A stretch of 64,000 nucleotides of DNA from Escherichia virus TH43. The notes below the pieces were generated by a model. That model was not told where the DNA came from. It made no database searches and worked only from the letters and a program-made list of their open reading frames with translations. The stretch lies in the sequence record MT446414.1, one strand, 5' to 3'. Below, one piece after another: positions 2,930 through 61,687 of the stretch. The position numbers and the translations under genes were made by a program. Positions within the stretch are counted from its first letter, which is position 1. Each line of letters starts with the position of its first letter.

Positions 2930-3101
2930 AGCATGTAGCTTCTGTCGAAAGCAGAAGCTTCTTATCAATTTCAAACTGAATGAGGAAACAGGTTTGGGTC
3001 ATGCTTTTTGTCATGATTGCAGGCACTACCTCGAACAGAAGCAATACATAAACTGGTTGCATTACTACAACCCTAACATCTATAATCACAAGGTTATCTA
3101 A
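2906..3101 (+). CDS. small zinc-ribbon protein (CxxC...CxxC); overlaps thyX 3' end; start uncertain
   Basis: ORF track 2793..3101; Cys pairs CSFC and CHDC. Confidence 0.35.
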
Positions 3102-3581
3102 ATGAAAGCTATTTTTGAAGGAAGGGAGTATGATGTTCCTGATTGGGTTAAATACATAGCCCGTGACTATGATAATCTGGTTTGGGCATATGGAGACGTA
3201 AGACCTGTGTTTAATGAAAACACTGGTAGTTGGTCTAACATGTCAAAATTGCCAGGATTTATTCGGGCACTTGGCTCTTCTAGTCGTCCTGTAGGTTTCG
3301 CTGCTGACTCACTTGTTGAGGTTGGTGTTGAAAAGGAAATAGACAAGCCAGAAACGATTTGGGTTTTATCTTCGAGTACCCCAATCAAAGGGAGTCGTGG
3401 GATTTCCTTCTATGTTGAACCGGTCGCTTACTTCAAAAATAAGCCAACCATCAACGCTCTGATGTTAAAGAACATTCCTTATTCACAAGTTGCTACTCTG
3501 TTAGATAATGGTACAGTGCTTGTTGAGAATAATGGGACAAATCAAATCTTTTATGATTTAGAAGAAAGGGTTTTGGAATGA
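3102..3581 (+). CDS. hypothetical protein
   Basis: ORF track. Confidence 0.5.
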   Translation: MKAIFEGREYDVPDWVKYIARDYDNLVWAYGDVRPVFNENTGSWSNMSKLPGFIRALGSSSRPVGFAADSLVEVGVEKEIDKPETIWVLSSSTPIKGSRGISFYVEPVAYFKNKPTINALMLKNIPYSQVATLLDNGTVLVENNGTNQIFYDLEERVLE

Positions 3582-4001: not shown

Positions 4002-4322
4002 ATGATTAATGATAATACATTTAGGACTGGTAACGGAAACGAGATTAGTCCTGCTGAAGTGATTAAACGACACAGAACGCAGATGCTTATCCACTCCTAT
4101 TTGTATTATTGGTTGGATGACCCAATCTGGTCTGATGATAAATGGCAACAAGTGGCTGATGACTTAACCACTTTGCAAGAGATGTATCCTGAGCCTATTG
4201 GATTCTTTGATTCAGAGTTCAATGGGTGGAATGGCTCTACTGGTATGCATCTCCCTCATGACGAGCGTATTGCTTGTATGGCTACTGAAGTATATCGTTT
4301 ACATAAGGACAAATCTATCTGA
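4002..4322 (+). CDS. hypothetical protein with NAD-ligase domain Ia-like motif
   Basis: HSYLYYWLDDPIWSDDKW...LQEMYPE resembles the LigA N-terminal Ia domain (recalled). Confidence 0.45.
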   Translation: MINDNTFRTGNGNEISPAEVIKRHRTQMLIHSYLYYWLDDPIWSDDKWQQVADDLTTLQEMYPEPIGFFDSEFNGWNGSTGMHLPHDERIACMATEVYRLHKDKSI

Positions 4323-5239: not shown

Positions 5240-5256
5240 CATAATGTATACTCCTT
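5240..5256 (+). promoter_or_regulatory. candidate phage-specific promoter motif (ATAATGTATACTCC)
   Basis: TAATGTATA-like motif 27 nt upstream of the 5283 gene. Confidence 0.35.
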
Positions 5257-11452: not shown

Positions 11453-11724
11453 AAGTTCTTGTTTTTAAGTTAAGTTAATTAGTTTTCTTTTGATTTTAAT
11501 AGAGAATCAAAGTCCTAGGAGTCCTCAACCTAAATCAAGGATTTCCTTAATTCTCTATTTTTATCTCGCAGGTGTCTCCTGCCCTTCGGTACTTGCAAGG
11601 GTTACGATGATTGCCCAATATACAAGCCTGCAATAGCTTTACTAGCTATACCATATATACATTACTACTTACTGTTATCTACTACCAAAAAGGTTATAGT
11701 ATAATAGAACCTTATCTGTATAGG

Positions 11725-11745
11725 TGTAATGTATATAGTATACCA
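11725..11745 (+). promoter_or_regulatory. candidate phage-specific promoter motif (GTGTAATGTATATAGTATACC)
   Basis: best copy of the TAATGTATATA motif, 50 nt upstream of the SSB-like gene. Confidence 0.4.
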
Positions 11746-13332: not shown

Positions 13333-13983
13333 ATGAAGAAGAAGACAACACCCACACGCTATCGTATTCATGGCATTCCTATTAAATATTATCCAACCTT
13401 CGATGAATTCTATCGAGAGAACTGGAAAGTTGTGCATCGCTATTTCATGTATGACATTAAAGATTATCACGAAGCAGAGGATGTTGCTCAGGAAGTGTTA
13501 CTGAACGCTTGGCGTTTTGTGTTCGCAAAGCAAGAAGAACTTCTGCTCACTGATGAAAAAGATATTGAACACATGACCTATCGTGTTAAGAATATCATCT
13601 GGTCTATTCGTTCTAATCGTCAGACAGTTGGAGATCGACGTATCTATTCTATTCCAGAGGCTGATATGTTTAGACCTCCTGAGATGAACTCATGGGAAAG
13701 TCCTTTAGAGATTGCGATGGATAAGCATGACTCTACTGGAGACCCATTCTTGGAATCTAGAATCTTTTTCTTCTTCCAAGACTTAAGTGATATTATGGAT
13801 ACCAAGAAAATGGCAAGCATGTTCTCTATGCTCTTCCTTGGAATACCTCATGATCATATTCAGCAGCAGTTAGGAATTTCACACGGAACCTTCTATCGCC
13901 GATATGCAGAGAATCGTGATCTGTATGAAGCTGTAGTAGAGAAGCACTTTGATAAAGAAGATCTTCAAGGGATGATTCAATAA
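13333..13983 (+). CDS. phage-encoded sigma factor (sigma-70 family, ECF-like)
   Basis: region 2-like RYFMYD...[14 protein letters not shown]; region 4 HTH-like [21 protein letters not shown]. Confidence 0.65.
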
Positions 13984-15595: not shown

Positions 15596-15986
15596 GAAAA
15601 CTAGATGCTCCGGTCAGTGGACTGAAGCACGATATAACTCCTTCATCAAATCAGGGATTCGTTCTCTGACTAGAAAATGGAAGCCTATGTTTGACTCTCT
15701 TAAAGAGGCTCAGACAGAGCGTAAGATCAACCCTAAAACTGGCAAGCTGGCAATGCACTATAAGTGTGCCTTGTGTGGTAATGACTCTCCTCTGAAAGAG
15801 GTAGCTGTCGACCATATAGAACCTATTGTTCCAGTGGACCATGAAGCTACTTGGGATGAAATTATCGAGAGAGCTTTGGTTGAAGTAGATGGCTTTCAAG
15901 TCTTGTGTAAAGAACCTTGTCATAAGATTAAAACTAAGGAAGAGAATGATGCAAGACGAGAATTTAAAAAATCTAGAGACTCCTGA
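15582..15986 (+). CDS. HNH endonuclease
   Basis: CALCG...VDHIEPIVPV...CHKIKTKEEN. Confidence 0.65.
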   Translation: MAKAEKTRCSGQWTEARYNSFIKSGIRSLTRKWKPMFDSLKEAQTERKINPKTGKLAMHYKCALCGNDSPLKEVAVDHIEPIVPVDHEATWDEIIERALVEVDGFQVLCKEPCHKIKTKEENDARREFKKSRDS

Positions 15987-16248
15987 AGAAAGAGAAGTCT
16001 TTGAATCTATGAATAAGGAAAACACCTATGATCAAGTATCTACGAAACAAGTTCTTCGCTTTAGCTATCGTAATTGGAGAGGTGAAATTGCAGACCGCTC
16101 CGTTGTTCCTATACGAACCTCAGTTGCTTCTTCCCGTTATCATAATGGGGGCAAACCTTGTTGGATAATGACCGCTTGGGACAACGATAAGAATGACATT
16201 AGAGAGTTTAAGCTCTCTGATATTATTAAGTATTATGATTTAATCTAG
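15946..16248 (+). CDS. hypothetical protein
   Basis: ORF track 15889..16248; internal ATG after RBS AAGGAAGAGA. Confidence 0.45.
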   Translation: MMQDENLKNLETPEEREVFESMNKENTYDQVSTKQVLRFSYRNWRGEIADRSVVPIRTSVASSRYHNGGKPCWIMTAWDNDKNDIREFKLSDIIKYYDLI

Positions 16249-16256
16249 GAGAACAA

Positions 16257-16523
16257 ATGGATTTTAGTTCAGCACTTGTTAAAGTAAAAGAAGGGAAAAA
16301 GATCACCCGCTCTGGTTGGAATGGTGCAAACCAGTTCGTCTTTAAAGCAGGTGGTTATGAAGTAGAGGAAGCTCGACCGGGTTCTCTTTATGAAAAAGCT
16401 GATATTGTAGGTCAATTCTATATTGCCCCTCATTTAGTTTTAAAGAATGCTCAAGGTATTATACAGCCCGGATGGGTTCCATCTCAAGGCGACCTGTTTG
16501 CAAACGATTGGGAGATTTTATGA
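16257..16523 (+). CDS. DUF2829-like small protein (candidate Tad2-like anti-Thoeris sponge)
   Basis: MDFSSALVKVKEGKKITRSGWNG...GW.PSQGDLFANDWEIL pattern, recalled as DUF2829-like. Confidence 0.45.
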   Translation: MDFSSALVKVKEGKKITRSGWNGANQFVFKAGGYEVEEARPGSLYEKADIVGQFYIAPHLVLKNAQGIIQPGWVPSQGDLFANDWEIL

Positions 16524-16718
16524 TTGACTTCGAAGAAGAAAATTGGGATGTATGATGAATTCGATGGATTCTAGTAGCCTTGGGTTTTCTCTTTGTTCTA
16601 ATAACTTCTATTAAGAGCAAGGACACACCCCTACTGTACAGTAGATATGGCAAGAGAAGTGGAAAAGGTTTGATATTTAAGTGTCGAATCTTTTCTTATT
16701 TATATCTAGAAATAAAGA

Positions 16719-16752
16719 AGCCCCCTTCCTTTTCAGGTTGGGGGCTTTTCTC
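16719..16752. terminator. bidirectional rho-independent terminator at the convergent junction
   Basis: AGCCCCC...GGGGGCT hairpin with T-tracts on both strands. Confidence 0.6.
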
Positions 16753-16754
16753 GT

Positions 16755-19700
16755 TTACTCTTTAGCTCGAACTCTAACCCGGAGTTTAGCTTGACGCTTA
16801 CTTCTCTCCAACTTGTCAGACAGAGAACCACGTTTGACTTTCAACTCTCCCTCGTCATTATACTTCTCCAAGAACTGTAAATACTCTTGTCGAGTAGTTG
16901 TCTTGTAAGAAGGAATCTTAACATCAGGATTCTCTTCAATCACACGTCTAATCTTCGCTACATCATCCCGCCCTAAAAGTTTCCCTTTAGCTTGTTCAGC
17001 AGTAGAACCAAAGATTTTCTCCAGTGCTCTAGATTTGTTACCACCCGCTGAAGCAGCACCAAGTTTCGCAATAGCAGAGTAATCGTCAGCACTAAACCAA
17101 GCCACTGGATTATCTCCATATTGTTTCTTGTTCTCCGCAGCAGTTTGTAAAGCACGCACAAAGCGACGGTTATTACCAGCTTTGTCAGCACCATGAACCC
17201 TATCTAGAACTTCTGCTACACTAGCCAGCTCCTGCAAGTCTTTCCCTTCGATAAAAGCTTTCTCTGCTTTGTTAGCAAAGTCATCTTCCTGCTTCTTAAT
17301 ACTTTCCAGTATATCAGAGGAGGCTTGAGACCTTTCATCTTCCGGCAACGCCGAACGAACTTTCTCCATTTCCAACTCTTCATCCTGAAGTTTCTTCAAC
17401 TCAGAATCTACCTTCCTAGCATCTTCGATAGCTTTCGAAGTATCTGCATCCACCTCTACCTTCCCATCCATATCACCAGTTGCCTTAGCAATATCTTTCT
17501 CGATTGGTGTCATCTTCTCAAAATCCTTAGCAAACTTTGAAATATCCGATTCAATACGAGAACGAGCATTCTGGTGCTCAGTAGGAGTCATAGGTTTCTC
17601 CAGAAGAGAGTAACGGTTATCCATATAAGAACCTGCAAAGATTTCTGCATCTTCTTTAGGAATCCCTTTATCCTCCATAGAACGCATCAGGCGCTTATGA
17701 ATGTCATCACGTTGGCGTTGTATTGCCATGCGATCGTTCTCTGCTTCCTGAGCTTCTTTGAGCTTCTTGTCACGTTGTACACGGGAATCAATGTCGTATT
17801 TACGGTTCATCTCTTCCGCCTGTTCGTACATCTTATTCCACTTAGCTTCTCGAGCATCTTCTTCCGCTTCAGTGAGACGACGCTTACGGTCAATGTAATC
17901 ACTTTCTGCGTTGTGGATACGTTCGATAATACTACGGAAACGCTCCGGTGGCACAGGAGAGTTCTTATCGTGGTGAGCTGCTAACTGTTTCAGTGTACGA
18001 CCTTCCTGAGACTCACGTACCGACTCTGGTAAATCTTTCAACAGGTTCTCCATCTCCGATTTCTGAGCCGCTATAGCTTCGAGAGACTGTCTTTCTGTCT
18101 CTACTGCTGCCTTGGCATCACTACGAGCTTTAGCCCTGTTACGGAGCGTCTCAAGACGTTCTTGACGTGCTTGCAAATGTTTAGCTGCTGCTTCGTACTG
18201 AGAGTTCTTATTAGCTTTGTTGAACATGTTAACTTCACGGTTATATGTGTTAATGAAGCCATCCCATATATCCTTCATCTGTCCCACTTCCAAAGCATCT
18301 TCCCTTCCAGCCTTCTCTGAAGCTTTAAACTTCCCATCTACAAAGTCTTCCATCAACTTACGCATAGCATCTTTTTGAGCTGGACGTAATGGCTCTGCAT
18401 CAAGAAGTAAATTGATTTCGCTGTGTAACTCTTTCTTCTGGTCAACCAGCTTAGGAGCATCAGCTTTATCAAGCTTCTTATTCTCTGCAAGAGCTTCTTC
18501 ATACATCCTATTAAATTCATCATCACGTTGTTTCTGATACAGACGTTCAGACCTACGCTTCAGTGAGTCTAGACTAGTCACGTTCCCACCAATACCTTTC
18601 TCCTCAGCACGTAATGCCTTGGTAGCAATATCAGAAGGTAGACCACGTTCCTTAACCCAATCAGCAAACGAAGAACGAACACGTTGTGACTTAGCAGCAG
18701 CAATACCCTGTTGAGAAGCAAGTTGGTTACGAGCCATCTCAGCATGACGTTCAGCATTGTTGGCTTGGTCTTCCTGACGGATACGACGCATCAACTCTTT
18801 CGGGTCACCTTTATAAGAAAGGAAGTTCTCAGCTGTGGCTTTAGCCTTAGCACCTGCCGTATACAGAGAACGAGCAAAGCGATCTGCACGATCTTTAGTA
18901 GCTTGACGGGCAGCACTTGACATAGCAGCCAGACGCTCTATTCCAGTAGCTGGTTTAACAGGCTCAGGCTCAACCTCAGGAGCTTTAGGAGCACGGGTAG
19001 GTAATGGCTCGGCTTGAACGATAGGCTCCTCAGGAACGCTCTCAGCAGCCTTGCTAGCCTCTTCTGCTTCTTGACGTTTACGAGCTTCTGCAACAGCACG
19101 ACGCTGAGCAACTAAATCCCTTGCGGTAGTAACTGGTTCTTGTGGAACTGGCTCTGGAGTTGGTTCTTCCTGAACCCTGTTAGCTTCGGCTTCTTGACGT
19201 CTAGCTTCAGCTTCCTTCAAAGCACGTCTCTGTGCGACCAAATCACGAGCAGTTAAAGGAGAGGTTTCTGGAGAGGAAATTTCTTCCGTCACAGTAGTAG
19301 CAGAAGGCTCCCGAACCGGTTCGATTTCCGTGTCATTTTGAGTCTTAAATTTAATGTCATCAACTTCAGGTTCTTTCTCCATCGCAGCACGGGCTTCATC
19401 AGCCTGAGCACGAGCACGAGTTACTTCCATATCACTACGAGCAAGAGAACGAATAGCTTCACTGTTAGCAGCCTGCTGGCTTTCACGTTGAGAGCGAGCA
19501 CGGTCAGAACGGAAACGGTTAAGAACATGCTTAGCAGCACCAAGAGGATTCTTAATCAGAACTGGAGGAGCAGCTTCTTTAAAACCATCAGCAGTCAGAG
19601 AAGTCCAACCACGGTCTTGGTTACTCATTAACTTAGCTGTGTTATTCAGAGTGAAAGCATCTTGGATTGGGTTGAAACCTTCAGGCATTCCTTTAAGTTT

Positions 19701-21173
19701 CTTCAAACCACCAATAGCAGTTTTCATTTCTGGAGATACATTATCAGCCAGTTTCTGAAGCTCTGTAGCTTTCTCTATGAAGTTATTAAAGTCTTCACCA
19801 TCACGAGCTTTGAATCGATTAGCTTCGTTATAGAAAGTTTTATAAGCATCAATGAAATCACGATCTGCTTGGGTACGATTCTTAATGTCCATAGCACTAC
19901 CAGTAAAATCACCACTGGCACGAGCAGCTGTTAATTCACGATCAAGGTTATCCAGAACATCAGACAAAGATTTAGTGTTGTCTTTTGTATAATCAGCCAT
20001 TGCATCTTTCATTGCCACAGCTTGTTTCTGGTTATGTTCGTTGTCTGCGTTAGCTTTACCTTGCTTCTTATTAGGAGCAGCAAGAGGATTTAAACCCGGA
20101 ACATTAGAACGATCTTCCAGAATAGTAGCAGCCTTCTCGGCACGACTTTGATCAGTATTAAGGATACGCTGAGCAGCAGGAGAGTCCATAGCCACAGCAT
20201 CAGTAACACGGAAACCGTTCTCATCGAGGAGATTAAGAGCAGAAGCTGTGTTAGCGTTATCAGCTTTAGAGTAAGCCTCTCTTAGTTCGTCTGCATTTTT
20301 AGCTGAGCGAATAGCTTCATCTTCAGCGGCAATGTCAGTCTTAACGTGTTCTGGAGTACGGTCAAAGACTTGAGGACTAGGACGACTTATCAATCCATGA
20401 ACCCCACCAATAGCCCCACCGTAAGCAGCACCCATCGCACCTTCTTCTACAGCACCTTCAATGATATTAGCAAGAGTAGTGTCATCACCATATTTGTTCT
20501 GTGCTTCAGCAGCACCTACAAGAGCACCACCTTTAGCACCAGCCACTGCGTTAGATGCTACACTCTGACCAACACGACCTAGGGTAGTAGAAGCAGTGCC
20601 TGTCATCCCCGGAAGAATCTTCTGAGCTGCAAAGTTAGCACCACCAACTAAACCAGCATCAAGAACAGACTTCTCTTCACCCTCTTCTGGAGTTTGGTCT
20701 GCATAAGCTCTACCTGTTTCACGAGCTGCAATAACAGCAGCAGCTACAGCTGGGTTAGCAACCGTAAGACCAATATCAGCGGCAACGCCAGCATACTGAC
20801 CTACAGATTTACCTACACCATCTTCGATTTGAGAGAGACGTTCTTCTAGTAAGTTTTTAGAGTTGTCTTGAATACGCTTACCGTAACTTGTCTGTGTACC
20901 AGCTAGATTTTCTCCAATCTCAACTAATCCACCAATACCTCTAGCAGCACTGGCTGCAATGTTTGCACCACCTGATTGAATAGCGTTGGACACACCTTGG
21001 GCAAAATCACCAACCAACCCCGGTTGCTCTTCTTGTTTAGGAGCTGGAGCAGCCTCAGGAATCGTTCCACCCGCTGCTTTATACTGTTCTCGCATCTGAG
21101 ACTGTTGCTCAGGGGAGGCATTCAAATACGCAGGGCTTTTAGAAGCTTCTTCCCACGGTTTTAAGTTCGCCAT
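16755..21173 (-). CDS. large virion structural protein (internal/ejection protein candidate), 1472 aa
   Basis: long charged coiled-coil regions with internal tandem repeat; last gene of late block. Confidence 0.55.
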   Translation of the reverse strand: MANLKPWEEASKSPAYLNASPEQQSQMREQYKAAGGTIPEAAPAPKQEEQPGLVGDFAQGVSNAIQSGGANIAASAARGIGGLVEIGENLAGTQTSYGKRIQDNSKNLLEERLSQIEDGVGKSVGQYAGVAADIGLTVANPAVAAAVIAARETGRAYADQTPEEGEEKSVLDAGLVGGANFAAQKILPGMTGTASTTLGRVGQSVASNAVAGAKGGALVGAAEAQNKYGDDTTLANIIEGAVEEGAMGAAYGGAIGGVHGLISRPSPQVFDRTPEHVKTDIAAEDEAIRSAKNADELREAYSKADNANTASALNLLDENGFRVTDAVAMDSPAAQRILNTDQSRAEKAATILEDRSNVPGLNPLAAPNKKQGKANADNEHNQKQAVAMKDAMADYTKDNTKSLSDVLDNLDRELTAARASGDFTGSAMDIKNRTQADRDFIDAYKTFYNEANRFKARDGEDFNNFIEKATELQKLADNVSPEMKTAIGGLKKLKGMPEGFNPIQDAFTLNNTAKLMSNQDRGWTSLTADGFKEAAPPVLIKNPLGAAKHVLNRFRSDRARSQRESQQAANSEAIRSLARSDMEVTRARAQADEARAAMEKEPEVDDIKFKTQNDTEIEPVREPSATTVTEEISSPETSPLTARDLVAQRRALKEAEARRQEAEANRVQEEPTPEPVPQEPVTTARDLVAQRRAVAEARKRQEAEEASKAAESVPEEPIVQAEPLPTRAPKAPEVEPEPVKPATGIERLAAMSSAARQATKDRADRFARSLYTAGAKAKATAENFLSYKGDPKELMRRIRQEDQANNAERHAEMARNQLASQQGIAAAKSQRVRSSFADWVKERGLPSDIATKALRAEEKGIGGNVTSLDSLKRRSERLYQKQRDDEFNRMYEEALAENKKLDKADAPKLVDQKKELHSEINLLLDAEPLRPAQKDAMRKLMEDFVDGKFKASEKAGREDALEVGQMKDIWDGFINTYNREVNMFNKANKNSQYEAAAKHLQARQERLETLRNRAKARSDAKAAVETERQSLEAIAAQKSEMENLLKDLPESVRESQEGRTLKQLAAHHDKNSPVPPERFRSIIERIHNAESDYIDRKRRLTEAEEDAREAKWNKMYEQAEEMNRKYDIDSRVQRDKKLKEAQEAENDRMAIQRQRDDIHKRLMRSMEDKGIPKEDAEIFAGSYMDNRYSLLEKPMTPTEHQNARSRIESDISKFAKDFEKMTPIEKDIAKATGDMDGKVEVDADTSKAIEDARKVDSELKKLQDEELEMEKVRSALPEDERSQASSDILESIKKQEDDFANKAEKAFIEGKDLQELASVAEVLDRVHGADKAGNNRRFVRALQTAAENKKQYGDNPVAWFSADDYSAIAKLGAASAGGNKSRALEKIFGSTAEQAKGKLLGRDDVAKIRRVIEENPDVKIPSYKTTTRQEYLQFLEKYNDEGELKVKRGSLSDKLERSKRQAKLRVRVRAKE

Positions 21174-21204: not shown

Positions 21205-21222
21205 TCCTATATACATTATAAG
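21205..21222 (-). promoter_or_regulatory. candidate phage-specific promoter motif (minus strand TATAATGTATATAGGAGG)
   Basis: TAATGTATATA motif ~35 nt upstream of ATG 21173. Confidence 0.35.
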
Positions 21223-61273: not shown

Positions 61274-61687
61274 ATGGCTGGGAAACTCCCCAACGTAAGC
61301 AAGAAATTGGCCTACCTCACGTATAAAGAAAACATTGATCTTCTGGTCAAGCTTTATCCGGCTTCATTCAACAAGCAATTCCCTCTTCCTTTGGAGCTTA
61401 ACATCCATAAGGAAATAGCCCGTAAGACCGGTTGGTCAGCGGAGAAAACAAGCATGGTGCTCAACATCTGGACTACTCGTATGGAGTATGTGATGATGGC
61501 CTGTAGCACTGGTAAACGCTTCAAGCTGCACTCTGTAGCTATGAAGATTCGTAGTCCTATTGACCCTGAGCCAATGGCTGGGTTCAGCAGCCGTCTGAAA
61601 TCTTTCCGTGATCGTGGTCGTGTAGTGAAGTTTAAGCACGACTTCTCTTATAAGTTTGGATACGAAGCGTTCCAATTCGTTGTTTAA
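61274..61687 (+). CDS. ProQ/FinO-domain RNA-binding protein candidate
   Basis: LVKLYPASF...PLPLELNIHKEIARKTGWSAEKTSMVLNIWTTRMEY...GKRFKLH resembles the ProQ N-terminal domain (recalled). Confidence 0.5.
   Translation: MAGKLPNVSKKLAYLTYKENIDLLVKLYPASFNKQFPLPLELNIHKEIARKTGWSAEKTSMVLNIWTTRMEYVMMACSTGKRFKLHSVAMKIRSPIDPEPMAGFSSRLKSFRDRGRVVKFKHDFSYKFGYEAFQFVV

Follow-up and report, generated by a model that had tools for sequence, protein, structure and literature searches.

The gene at positions 16257-16523 of the window, the 64,000-nt stretch of phage DNA analysed here, encodes a genuine member of the Tad2 (DUF2829) family. It is a phage counter-defence gene of the expected kind, and its binding pocket is of a subtype that we call Q/G. 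By analogy with solved Tad2 proteins, the product is probably a homotetrameric sponge for a TIR-made signal of the ADPR type. The window comes from a Gordonclarkvirinae (phiEco32-like) podophage of E. coli, the nearest genus being Suseptimavirus.

The Tad2-like gene and its conservation

The open reading frame (ORF) lies on the plus strand, starts with ATG, ends with TGA and encodes a protein of 88 aa, MDFSSALVKVKEGKKITRSGWNGANQFVFKAGGYEVEEARPGSLYEKADIVGQFYIAPHLVLKNAQGIIQPGWVPSQGDLFANDWEIL, with a mass of 9.7 kDa and an acidic pI of 5.7. An AGGAG Shine-Dalgarno sequence, read directly from the sequence at 16247-16251 (+), ends 5 nt upstream of the ATG and overlaps the TAG stop codon of the upstream WYL-like ORF. 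Annotation of 16257-16523 (+) as a Tad2-like coding sequence (PF11195/DUF2829) is based on Pfam, sequence matches in the PDB, an AlphaFold2 (AF2) model, Foldseek and dN/dS. The N- and C-terminal sequences quoted in an earlier note, which was made from the sequence alone, are both correct for this ORF.

The gene is under strong purifying selection, with dN/dS of 0.07-0.16 among orthologues from four Suseptimavirus phages. All 16 positions that vary among the four orthologues lie outside the pocket residues, and variation is greatest in the middle segment of the protein. Public collections already include an identical protein, encoded on contigs of about 78 kb, and one of the siblings in its 90% cluster has been named 'DUF2829 domain-containing protein [Shigella sonnei]'. 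The public labels of siblings are either DUF2829 or 'Thoeris anti-defense 2-like'.

Family membership and predicted fold

Pfam family PF11195, formerly DUF2829 and now named 'Tad2-like, Thoeris anti-defense 2-like domain', matched residues 1-88 of the protein over the entire profile (1-73 of 73) with E=7.9e-23 and 81.2 bits, the gathering cut-off being 25. The earlier note had likened the protein to DUF2829 by its termini and had proposed a profile search; the strong full-length match, far beyond chance, bears the assignment out. PHROG 1048 (E 5e-25) and PHROG 872 (E 2e-22), both of unknown function, were also matched. When the PDB was searched with phmmer, the protein matched SptTad2 (8WJD, 8.7e-11), ModTad2 (8V3E/9EIB, 4e-10), HgmTad2, which is AcrIIA7 (8KBI, 1e-9), and SPO1 Tad2 gp34.65 (8SME, 2.5e-9). 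An exhaustive HMMER search was run against 1.84 billion cluster representatives, and 2,687 of them belonged to the PF11195-type family at E<=1e-3. The window protein is a small accessory protein encoded in a lytic Suseptimavirus phage genome, as is expected of the Tad2 family.

An AF2 monomer model built from 52 homologues had a mean pLDDT of 95 and a pTM of 0.80. Helices were predicted at residues 3-11, 44-47 and 77-81, and strands at residues 16-18, 27-31, 34-36, 54-56, 59-63, 69-71 and 85-87. The order of these elements (alpha1, beta strands, a short alpha2 and a short alpha3) is that of SPO1 Tad2. Foldseek against the PDB gave 24 matches at E<=1e-3, all 24 of them Tad2/AcrIIA7 chains with TM scores of 0.65-0.79, and the next match had E>=1. 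The top match was ModTad2 bound to His-ADPR (E 1.6e-7, TM 0.78). Comparison of the predicted structure with Tad2, also proposed in the earlier note, thus returned solved Tad2 structures only. Residues F3, A6 and L7 of helix alpha1 are at least 90% conserved, consistent with the interlocking of the tetramer through alpha1. The profile match, the fold and the retained ribose-diphosphate contacts described below support the reading as a 'Tad2-type sponge' at the level of family and mechanism.

The ligand pocket and the Q/G subtype

Pocket residues of solved Tad2 proteins were transferred to the window protein through HMMER alignments. The 3'cADPR ligand of SPO1 Tad2 is bound through W25, W73, N26 and D79; D67, H71 and S76 coordinate waters, and the adenine makes contact with I63, T65 and, by a hydrogen bond, T78 (10.1101/2023.05.01.538930). 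In HgmTad2, gcADPR is contacted by W21, N22, G23, W87, L88, S90, T92 and D93, and adenine is surrounded by M76, A78, T82 and V84 (PMC10680739). The ribose and diphosphate contacts are all identical in the window protein (W21, N22, G23, W73, S76 and D79). Codons W21-N22-G23 at 16317-16325 (+) form the first half of the pocket and correspond to W25/N26 of SPO1 Tad2 and to the diphosphate contacts W21/N22/G23 of HgmTad2. The second half, at the start of alpha3, comprises codons W73-V-P-S76-Q-G78-D79 at 16473-16493 (+) and was located by HMMER mapping and conservation. Among about 220 aligned homologues, W21 was conserved in 220 of 220, N22 in 216 of 220 and G23 in 200 of about 220; the corresponding counts for the second half were 217 of 219 for W73, 204 of 218 for S76 and 217 of 218 for D79.

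Differences were found on the base side of the pocket. The Thr that contacts adenine (T78 in SPO1, T92 in HgmTad2) is replaced by G78 in the window protein, and the other changes are T65/A78 to N64, D67 to Q66, H71/V84 to Q70 and M30 to Q26. Q26 and G78 are invariant in an alignment of the 52-sequence clade, in which N64, A65, Q66 and P71 are at least 90% conserved. Across the 220 aligned homologues Q26 was combined with G78 in 129 sequences and M26 with T, S or A at position 78 in 44, and mixed combinations were rare. A second sample, which was seeded with the M/T scaffold, showed 'M...T' in 110 of 124 sequences. Because the Q26/G78 and M26/T-S-A78 changes are coupled, the Tad2 family, as judged from these alignments, holds two discrete pocket subfamilies, Q/G-type and M/T-type, both of them large. 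The characterised Tad2 proteins whose sequences were compared (SPO1, Hgm, Spt and Mod) are M-type, whereas the window protein is Q/G-type. We found no experimentally tested Q/G-type Tad2 in the literature, in which the sequences of several tested homologues were not obtainable. The pan-Thoeris inhibitor Tad2_71, whose termini were available from primer sequences only, was absent among the homologues collected, and a chimeric query did not recover it.

ModTad2 has Ser at the position of the Thr, so that the change from Thr to Gly bears on the claim of specificity and not on family membership. Taken together with the four other base-side differences, this change means that affinity for 3'cADPR is not to be assumed. 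The replacement residues Gln and Asn can read the adenine edge, and for this reason the ligand of the Q/G pocket probably still contains adenine.

Tandem Tad2 domains were observed in single chains, among them representatives P0062, P0063, P0085 and P0094. The pocket types of the two domains sometimes differ, as in P0094, in which an M-type domain is followed by a Q-type domain. These chains suggest that combining specificities within one protein is common in the family.

Fusions to other immune-signal sponges

The 150 nearest representatives all match PF11195. Extra Pfam domains among them were PF21825 (n=7), PF13876 (n=1) and PF24729 (n=1), with no others; these are Sequestin, Acb4 and the Acb2/Tad1 hairpin, all known modules of immune-signal sponges. 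Q26 and G78 were found in six of the seven Sequestin fusions, five with the exact signature WNGQNQQPWSGD and one with two other positions changed, and they were also present in the Acb4 fusions recovered. Within the Sequestin/Acb4 fusion set, the Tad2 domain of P0060 is 69% identical to the window protein and has the exact pocket signature. The fusions provide good indirect evidence that Q/G-type Tad2 domains act as sponges. As to the ligand, Sequestin binds 3'cADPR and among five systems tested blocks only type I Thoeris, and the Acb4-Tad2 fusion of Pasteurella phage Pm86 acts against CBASS as well as type I Thoeris (PMC12265669). Fusion to a partner specific for 3'cADPR is evidence that cuts both ways, since the specificities of the two domains could be complementary. 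The Pm86 fusion was found neither in the phage collection searched nor by name, and the species-representative genomes yielded no Pasteurella locus. No other sponge gene (Acb4, Sequestin or Acb2/Tad1) was detected in the window by tblastn or by a Pfam scan of 83 ORFs.

The N4-like Salmonella phage vB_SalP_TR2 carries a 64%-identical Q/G-type Tad2 gene at 2495-2767. It is located two genes from an Acb4-like (PF13876-type) ORF at 3003-3434, forming a small sponge cluster. A further TR2 ORF at 1520-1903 was deposited as 'DUF2829 domain-containing'; on visual inspection it shows no clear Tad2 motifs, and the annotation may be wrong.

Genomic context and transcription

The Tad2-like gene is the last substantial ORF of a rightward cluster encoding the phage sigma factor (13333-13983), a dNMP kinase, a 5'-3' exonuclease, an HNH endonuclease and a small WYL-like protein. 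On its 3' side, two tiny ORFs are followed by a GC-rich hairpin at 16716-16749 with T-runs on both strands, which was identified by RNA folding and as an inverted repeat at 16718-16747. The hairpin has a folding energy of -22.8 kcal/mol (z=-4.0), was not equalled by any of 200 shuffles and is conserved in all four aligned phages. A convergent late gene encoding 1472 aa occupies 16755-21173. The hairpin is a probable bidirectional intrinsic terminator, serving both the rightward cluster and this late gene. A simple scan missed this main terminator because its stem has an internal loop, and as the phage has its own sigma factor, a simple scan for sigma-70 promoters and terminators is uninformative here.

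The promoter consensus of the sigma factor phi32_gp36 is tAATGTAtA, and the cluster of DNA polymerase, nucleotide metabolism and sigma factor genes belongs to the middle class (PMC8948821). The exact phi32_gp36 promoter element, TAATGTATA, was present in four copies in the window against 0.71 expected. These exact matches, at 5242-5250 (+), 11656-11664 (-), 11727-11735 (+) and 21210-21218 (-), are probably middle and late promoters of the phage. The copy at 11727-11735 (+) is a candidate promoter for the unit ending with the Tad2-like gene, being the nearest upstream copy on the coding strand, and the copy at 21210 (-) lies just upstream of the 1472-aa late gene. Judged from the promoter motif and gene order only, the Tad2-like gene is likely expressed with the middle genes, a timing that follows from the published class of the cluster.

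The upstream neighbour at 15949-16248 (+) (the longest ORF starts at 15889) encodes about 99 aa and overlaps the end of the HNH gene. It matched Pfam PF13280 with E=6.9e-6 and 26.4 bits (cut-off 21.8) as well as PHROG 3715, and a sequence search of the PDB gave no match. This WYL-like protein is conserved across the subfamily, being gp29 in phiEco32, and is present also in IME267, which has no Tad2. In many defence regulators a WYL domain serves as the ligand-sensing module; the phage copy is a solo one.

Two other ORFs of the window were recorded. [quoted passage not shown] It was placed at 4002-4322 (+) by alignment to what we take to be the N-terminus of E. coli LigA. Solo Nlig-Ia domains are known in 81 phages, with ECBP2_0056 among the examples, and have been proposed to be NAD+/ADPr sensors (Iyer et al. 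2022, PMC9503650). The ORF may represent a second NAD+-related player beside the Tad2-like sponge. In the early region, a 137-aa ORF at 61274-61687 (+) gave a borderline ProQ/FinO match (PF04352, E=4e-6, 27.2 bits with a cut-off of 27), and its product may be an RNA chaperone-like phage protein.

Distribution among phages

The Tad2-like gene is an accessory gene at a replacement hot spot. Phages EK010, Bas86-88, NC-B and E20-1 share 88-93% DNA identity with the window over 4 kb. A 1.8-kb stretch around the gene was matched by 105 phage records, 12 of which covered at least 80% of it. In tblastn searches at a minimum of 83% identity the protein was found in six distinct phages only, namely Bas88 (95.5%), NC-B (93%) and Bas87, E20-1, EK010 and Bas86 (83-86%). 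The ORF is cleanly absent from the Suseptimavirus phage IME267, in which the junction is located between two flanking GGAG ribosome-binding motifs, one of them lost together with the ORF. In Kuravirus (phiEco32 and Bas90) the slot is filled by two unrelated small ORFs, gp28 and gp27. Homologues with 64-75% identity were found in the coliphages IME_EC2 and sortsyn (about 42 kb), in E. fergusonii phage EF2-1 and in the N4-like Salmonella phage TR2; their occurrence in unrelated phages points to horizontal spread of the gene.

The sequence downstream of the gene was also compared. The start codon of an 11-codon ORF, MIDFEEENWDV, at 16520-16555 (+) overlaps the stop codon of the Tad2-like gene (ATGA). 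This ORF is what remains of the C-terminal end of phiEco32 gp27 (...SEENWDV). When four Suseptimavirus genomes were compared, it differed by four synonymous substitutions and a single conservative one (I2V), which suggests that it is still translated or that its sequence is constrained for translational coupling. Between the micro-ORFs and the terminator, the window and EK010 have an intergenic segment of about 135 nt (16566-16700 in the window), in place of which Bas88 has other sequence and which IME267 lacks. A perfect palindrome of 14 nt, CTACTGTACAGTAG, lies within it at 16631-16644. Rfam searches of 16200-16800 gave sub-threshold, terminator-like matches only.

Proposed function and alternative explanations

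By analogy with the solved Tad2 structures, four 9.7-kDa protomers would form two V-shaped dimers and these together a homotetramer, with two deep pockets between non-dimeric protomers, to which W21/N22/G23 would be contributed by the beta1-beta2 loop and W73/S76/D79 by the start of alpha3. The pockets would bind and hide, without degrading it, an ADP-ribose-derived messenger produced by a TIR-domain sensor of the host. The downstream effector would then never be switched on and abortive infection would be prevented. The sponge would presumably be made with the middle genes, before late structural proteins accumulate.

Tad2 homologues differ in ligand, those reported being 3'cADPR, His-ADPR, N7-cADPR, cyclic dinucleotides and cUMP/cCMP, and 18 homologues have been assayed against 7 systems (PMC12393519). 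For the window protein, we give 3'cADPR of type I Thoeris nearly an even chance of being the ligand. We rate somewhat lower the possibility that the ligand is His-ADPR (type II Thoeris) or that more than one Thoeris signal is bound, and another signal is unlikely. The specific proposal of the earlier note, that gcADPR is the sequestered signal, is plausible. It is also conceivable, though we hold it to be rather doubtful, that the Q/G pocket (Q26, N64, Q66, Q70, P71 and G78) represents a large separate specificity class for a TIR signal other than 3'cADPR. Candidate signals for such a class could be His-ADPR (type II Thoeris) or the product of another E. coli TIR system. Tuning of the Q/G class to a signal other than 3'cADPR would explain the repeated fusions to Sequestin, which in tests bound 3'cADPR only; the fusions would then give broader coverage and not duplication. 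No published test of the window protein or of its orthologues in Bas86-88 for signal binding or Thoeris inhibition was found, and the BASEL paper on the characterisation of Bas86-88 is silent on Thoeris.

A separate pocket of HgmTad2 and SptTad2 accommodates cGG and 3'3'-cGAMP (PMC10680739). Pycsar, an E. coli Pycsar included, is blocked by MoTad2 and Tad2_70, which bind cUMP/cCMP (PMC12393519). The window protein, whose top structural match is ModTad2, might likewise be a sponge mainly for non-Thoeris signals, either the cyclic dinucleotides of CBASS or the cyclic mononucleotides of Pycsar, with a second pocket at the intra-dimer A-C interface as described for HgmTad2, SptTad2 and MoTad2; both systems are encoded in E. 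coli. However, cyclic-dinucleotide binding requires a beta2-beta5 insertion of 35-41 residues, and this insertion has about 26 residues in the window protein and 24 in SPO1 Tad2. N85 of HgmTad2 is P71 in the HMMER alignment, and R31 is A31 by position only, an approximate mapping one residue past the aligned stretch. A cyclic-dinucleotide pocket of the HgmTad2 type, which needs the insertion together with R31, S47, F70 and N85, was rejected because of the short insertion and the lack of residue conservation. In addition, it is around the canonical ADPR pocket that strongly conserved residues of the clade are concentrated, the middle segment varies most among orthologues, and we regard a sponge mainly for non-Thoeris signals as improbable. 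Less probable still is the use of the Tad2 fold outside the sequestration of immune signals, for example in binding NAD+ or a host metabolite, or a functionless passenger. Most of the 2,687 family representatives are functionally untested, the pocket subtype of the window protein differs from that of characterised Tad2, and the gene is dispensable in most relatives. Against this stand the strong purifying selection, the invariance of the ligand-contact residues and published screens in which a signalling defence system was inhibited by the majority of the Tad2 homologues assayed. Fusion partners among the 150 nearest representatives are other immune-signal sponges only, and this pattern together with the selection makes a function unrelated to defence unlikely.

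An anti-CRISPR function of the AcrIIA7 type, in which tracrRNA is bound in a basic groove of the tetramer and Cas9 is blocked, is the least probable of these alternatives and very improbable in itself. AcrIIA7 (HgmTad2) and pdAcrIIA7 are DUF2829 proteins that are matched by sequence and fold, and the tracrRNA mechanism of AcrIIA7 has been published (PMC13133391). RNA binding by pdAcrIIA7 requires K58, K66 and K71, which are K11, K19 and K24 in the short form (PMC13133391). The window protein keeps one of these three lysines (K11, S19 and A24) and has a pI of 5.7. With RNA-binding lysines missing and the protein acidic, the AcrIIA7-type function was rejected. To our knowledge, E. coli has CRISPR-Cas systems of types I-E and I-F only, without Cas9 or tracrRNA, so that the target of AcrIIA7 would be absent from the host.

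Sequestration of a TIR-made ADPR-type signal, the function that we prefer, is matched by host systems. In a survey of 2,289 E. coli genomes, the 781 TIR proteins found fell into 64 clusters, the largest being type II Thoeris; type I was also present, both were active, and about ten further TIR systems were active (PMC11350192). A type IV Thoeris system of E. coli has been cloned (PMC13243611). Coliphages escaped E. coli TIR systems through mutations in tail, capsid and replication proteins (PMC11350192), which fits a sponge made before late proteins appear.

As a single gene call the result is ordinary, since Tad2 homologues number in the thousands; the point worth following is the Q/G pocket signature. 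The Q/G and M/T signatures are a simple sequence marker that splits the Tad2 family into two large groups. If they track ligand specificity, annotation of anti-defence genes could predict which type of Thoeris a phage overcomes. Gordonclarkvirinae (phiEco32-like) phages are little studied candidates for phage therapy against E. coli, and the carriers (Bas86-88, EK010 and NC-B) and non-carriers (IME267 and Kuravirus) form a natural, isogenic-like panel for limits that Thoeris and TIR systems set to host range.

Comparison with known Tad2 systems

SPO1 Tad2 (gp34.65; PDB 8SME/8SMF/8SMG) is the founding member, a 3'cADPR sponge against type I Thoeris. The window protein resembles it in Pfam family, length (88 against 89 aa), order of secondary structure, acidic pI of about 5.7 and short beta2-beta5 insertion (about 26 against 24 aa). 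The W/N and W..S..D pocket residues are also shared, and the numbering of W73, S76 and D79 coincides. The two proteins differ in that identity is only about 31-36%, the host is Gram-negative and not Bacillus, and T78, T65, D67, H71 and M30 of SPO1 Tad2 are G78, N64, Q66, Q70 and Q26 in the window protein.

ModTad2, also written MoTad2 (PDB 8V3E, 9EIB), is a His-ADPR sponge against type II Thoeris that also binds cUMP (Pycsar). It is the best structural match, with the same length range (88-89 aa) and the same core residues, but its pocket is M-type (GWNGKGMF ... WTPSVSD). HgmTad2, identical with AcrIIA7, and SptTad2 (PDB 8KBI-8KBM, 8WJC, 8WJD) are dual sponges for gcADPR and cyclic dinucleotides, and AcrIIA7 also binds tracrRNA. 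The window protein shares their fold; relative to HgmTad2, W21/N22/G23 agree in both number and residue, and W87/S90/D93 correspond to W73/S76/D79. In contrast to HgmTad2 and SptTad2, it does not have the insertion of 35-41 aa that forms the cyclic-dinucleotide pocket. It further differs from HgmTad2 in the changes T92 to G78, N85 to P71 and, by position only, R31 to A31, and in missing two of the three RNA-binding lysines. The closest typed relatives are the Sequestin-Tad2 and Acb4-Tad2 fusions (PMC12265669), and the typed fusions all have Q26 and G78, whereas the window protein is a stand-alone domain.
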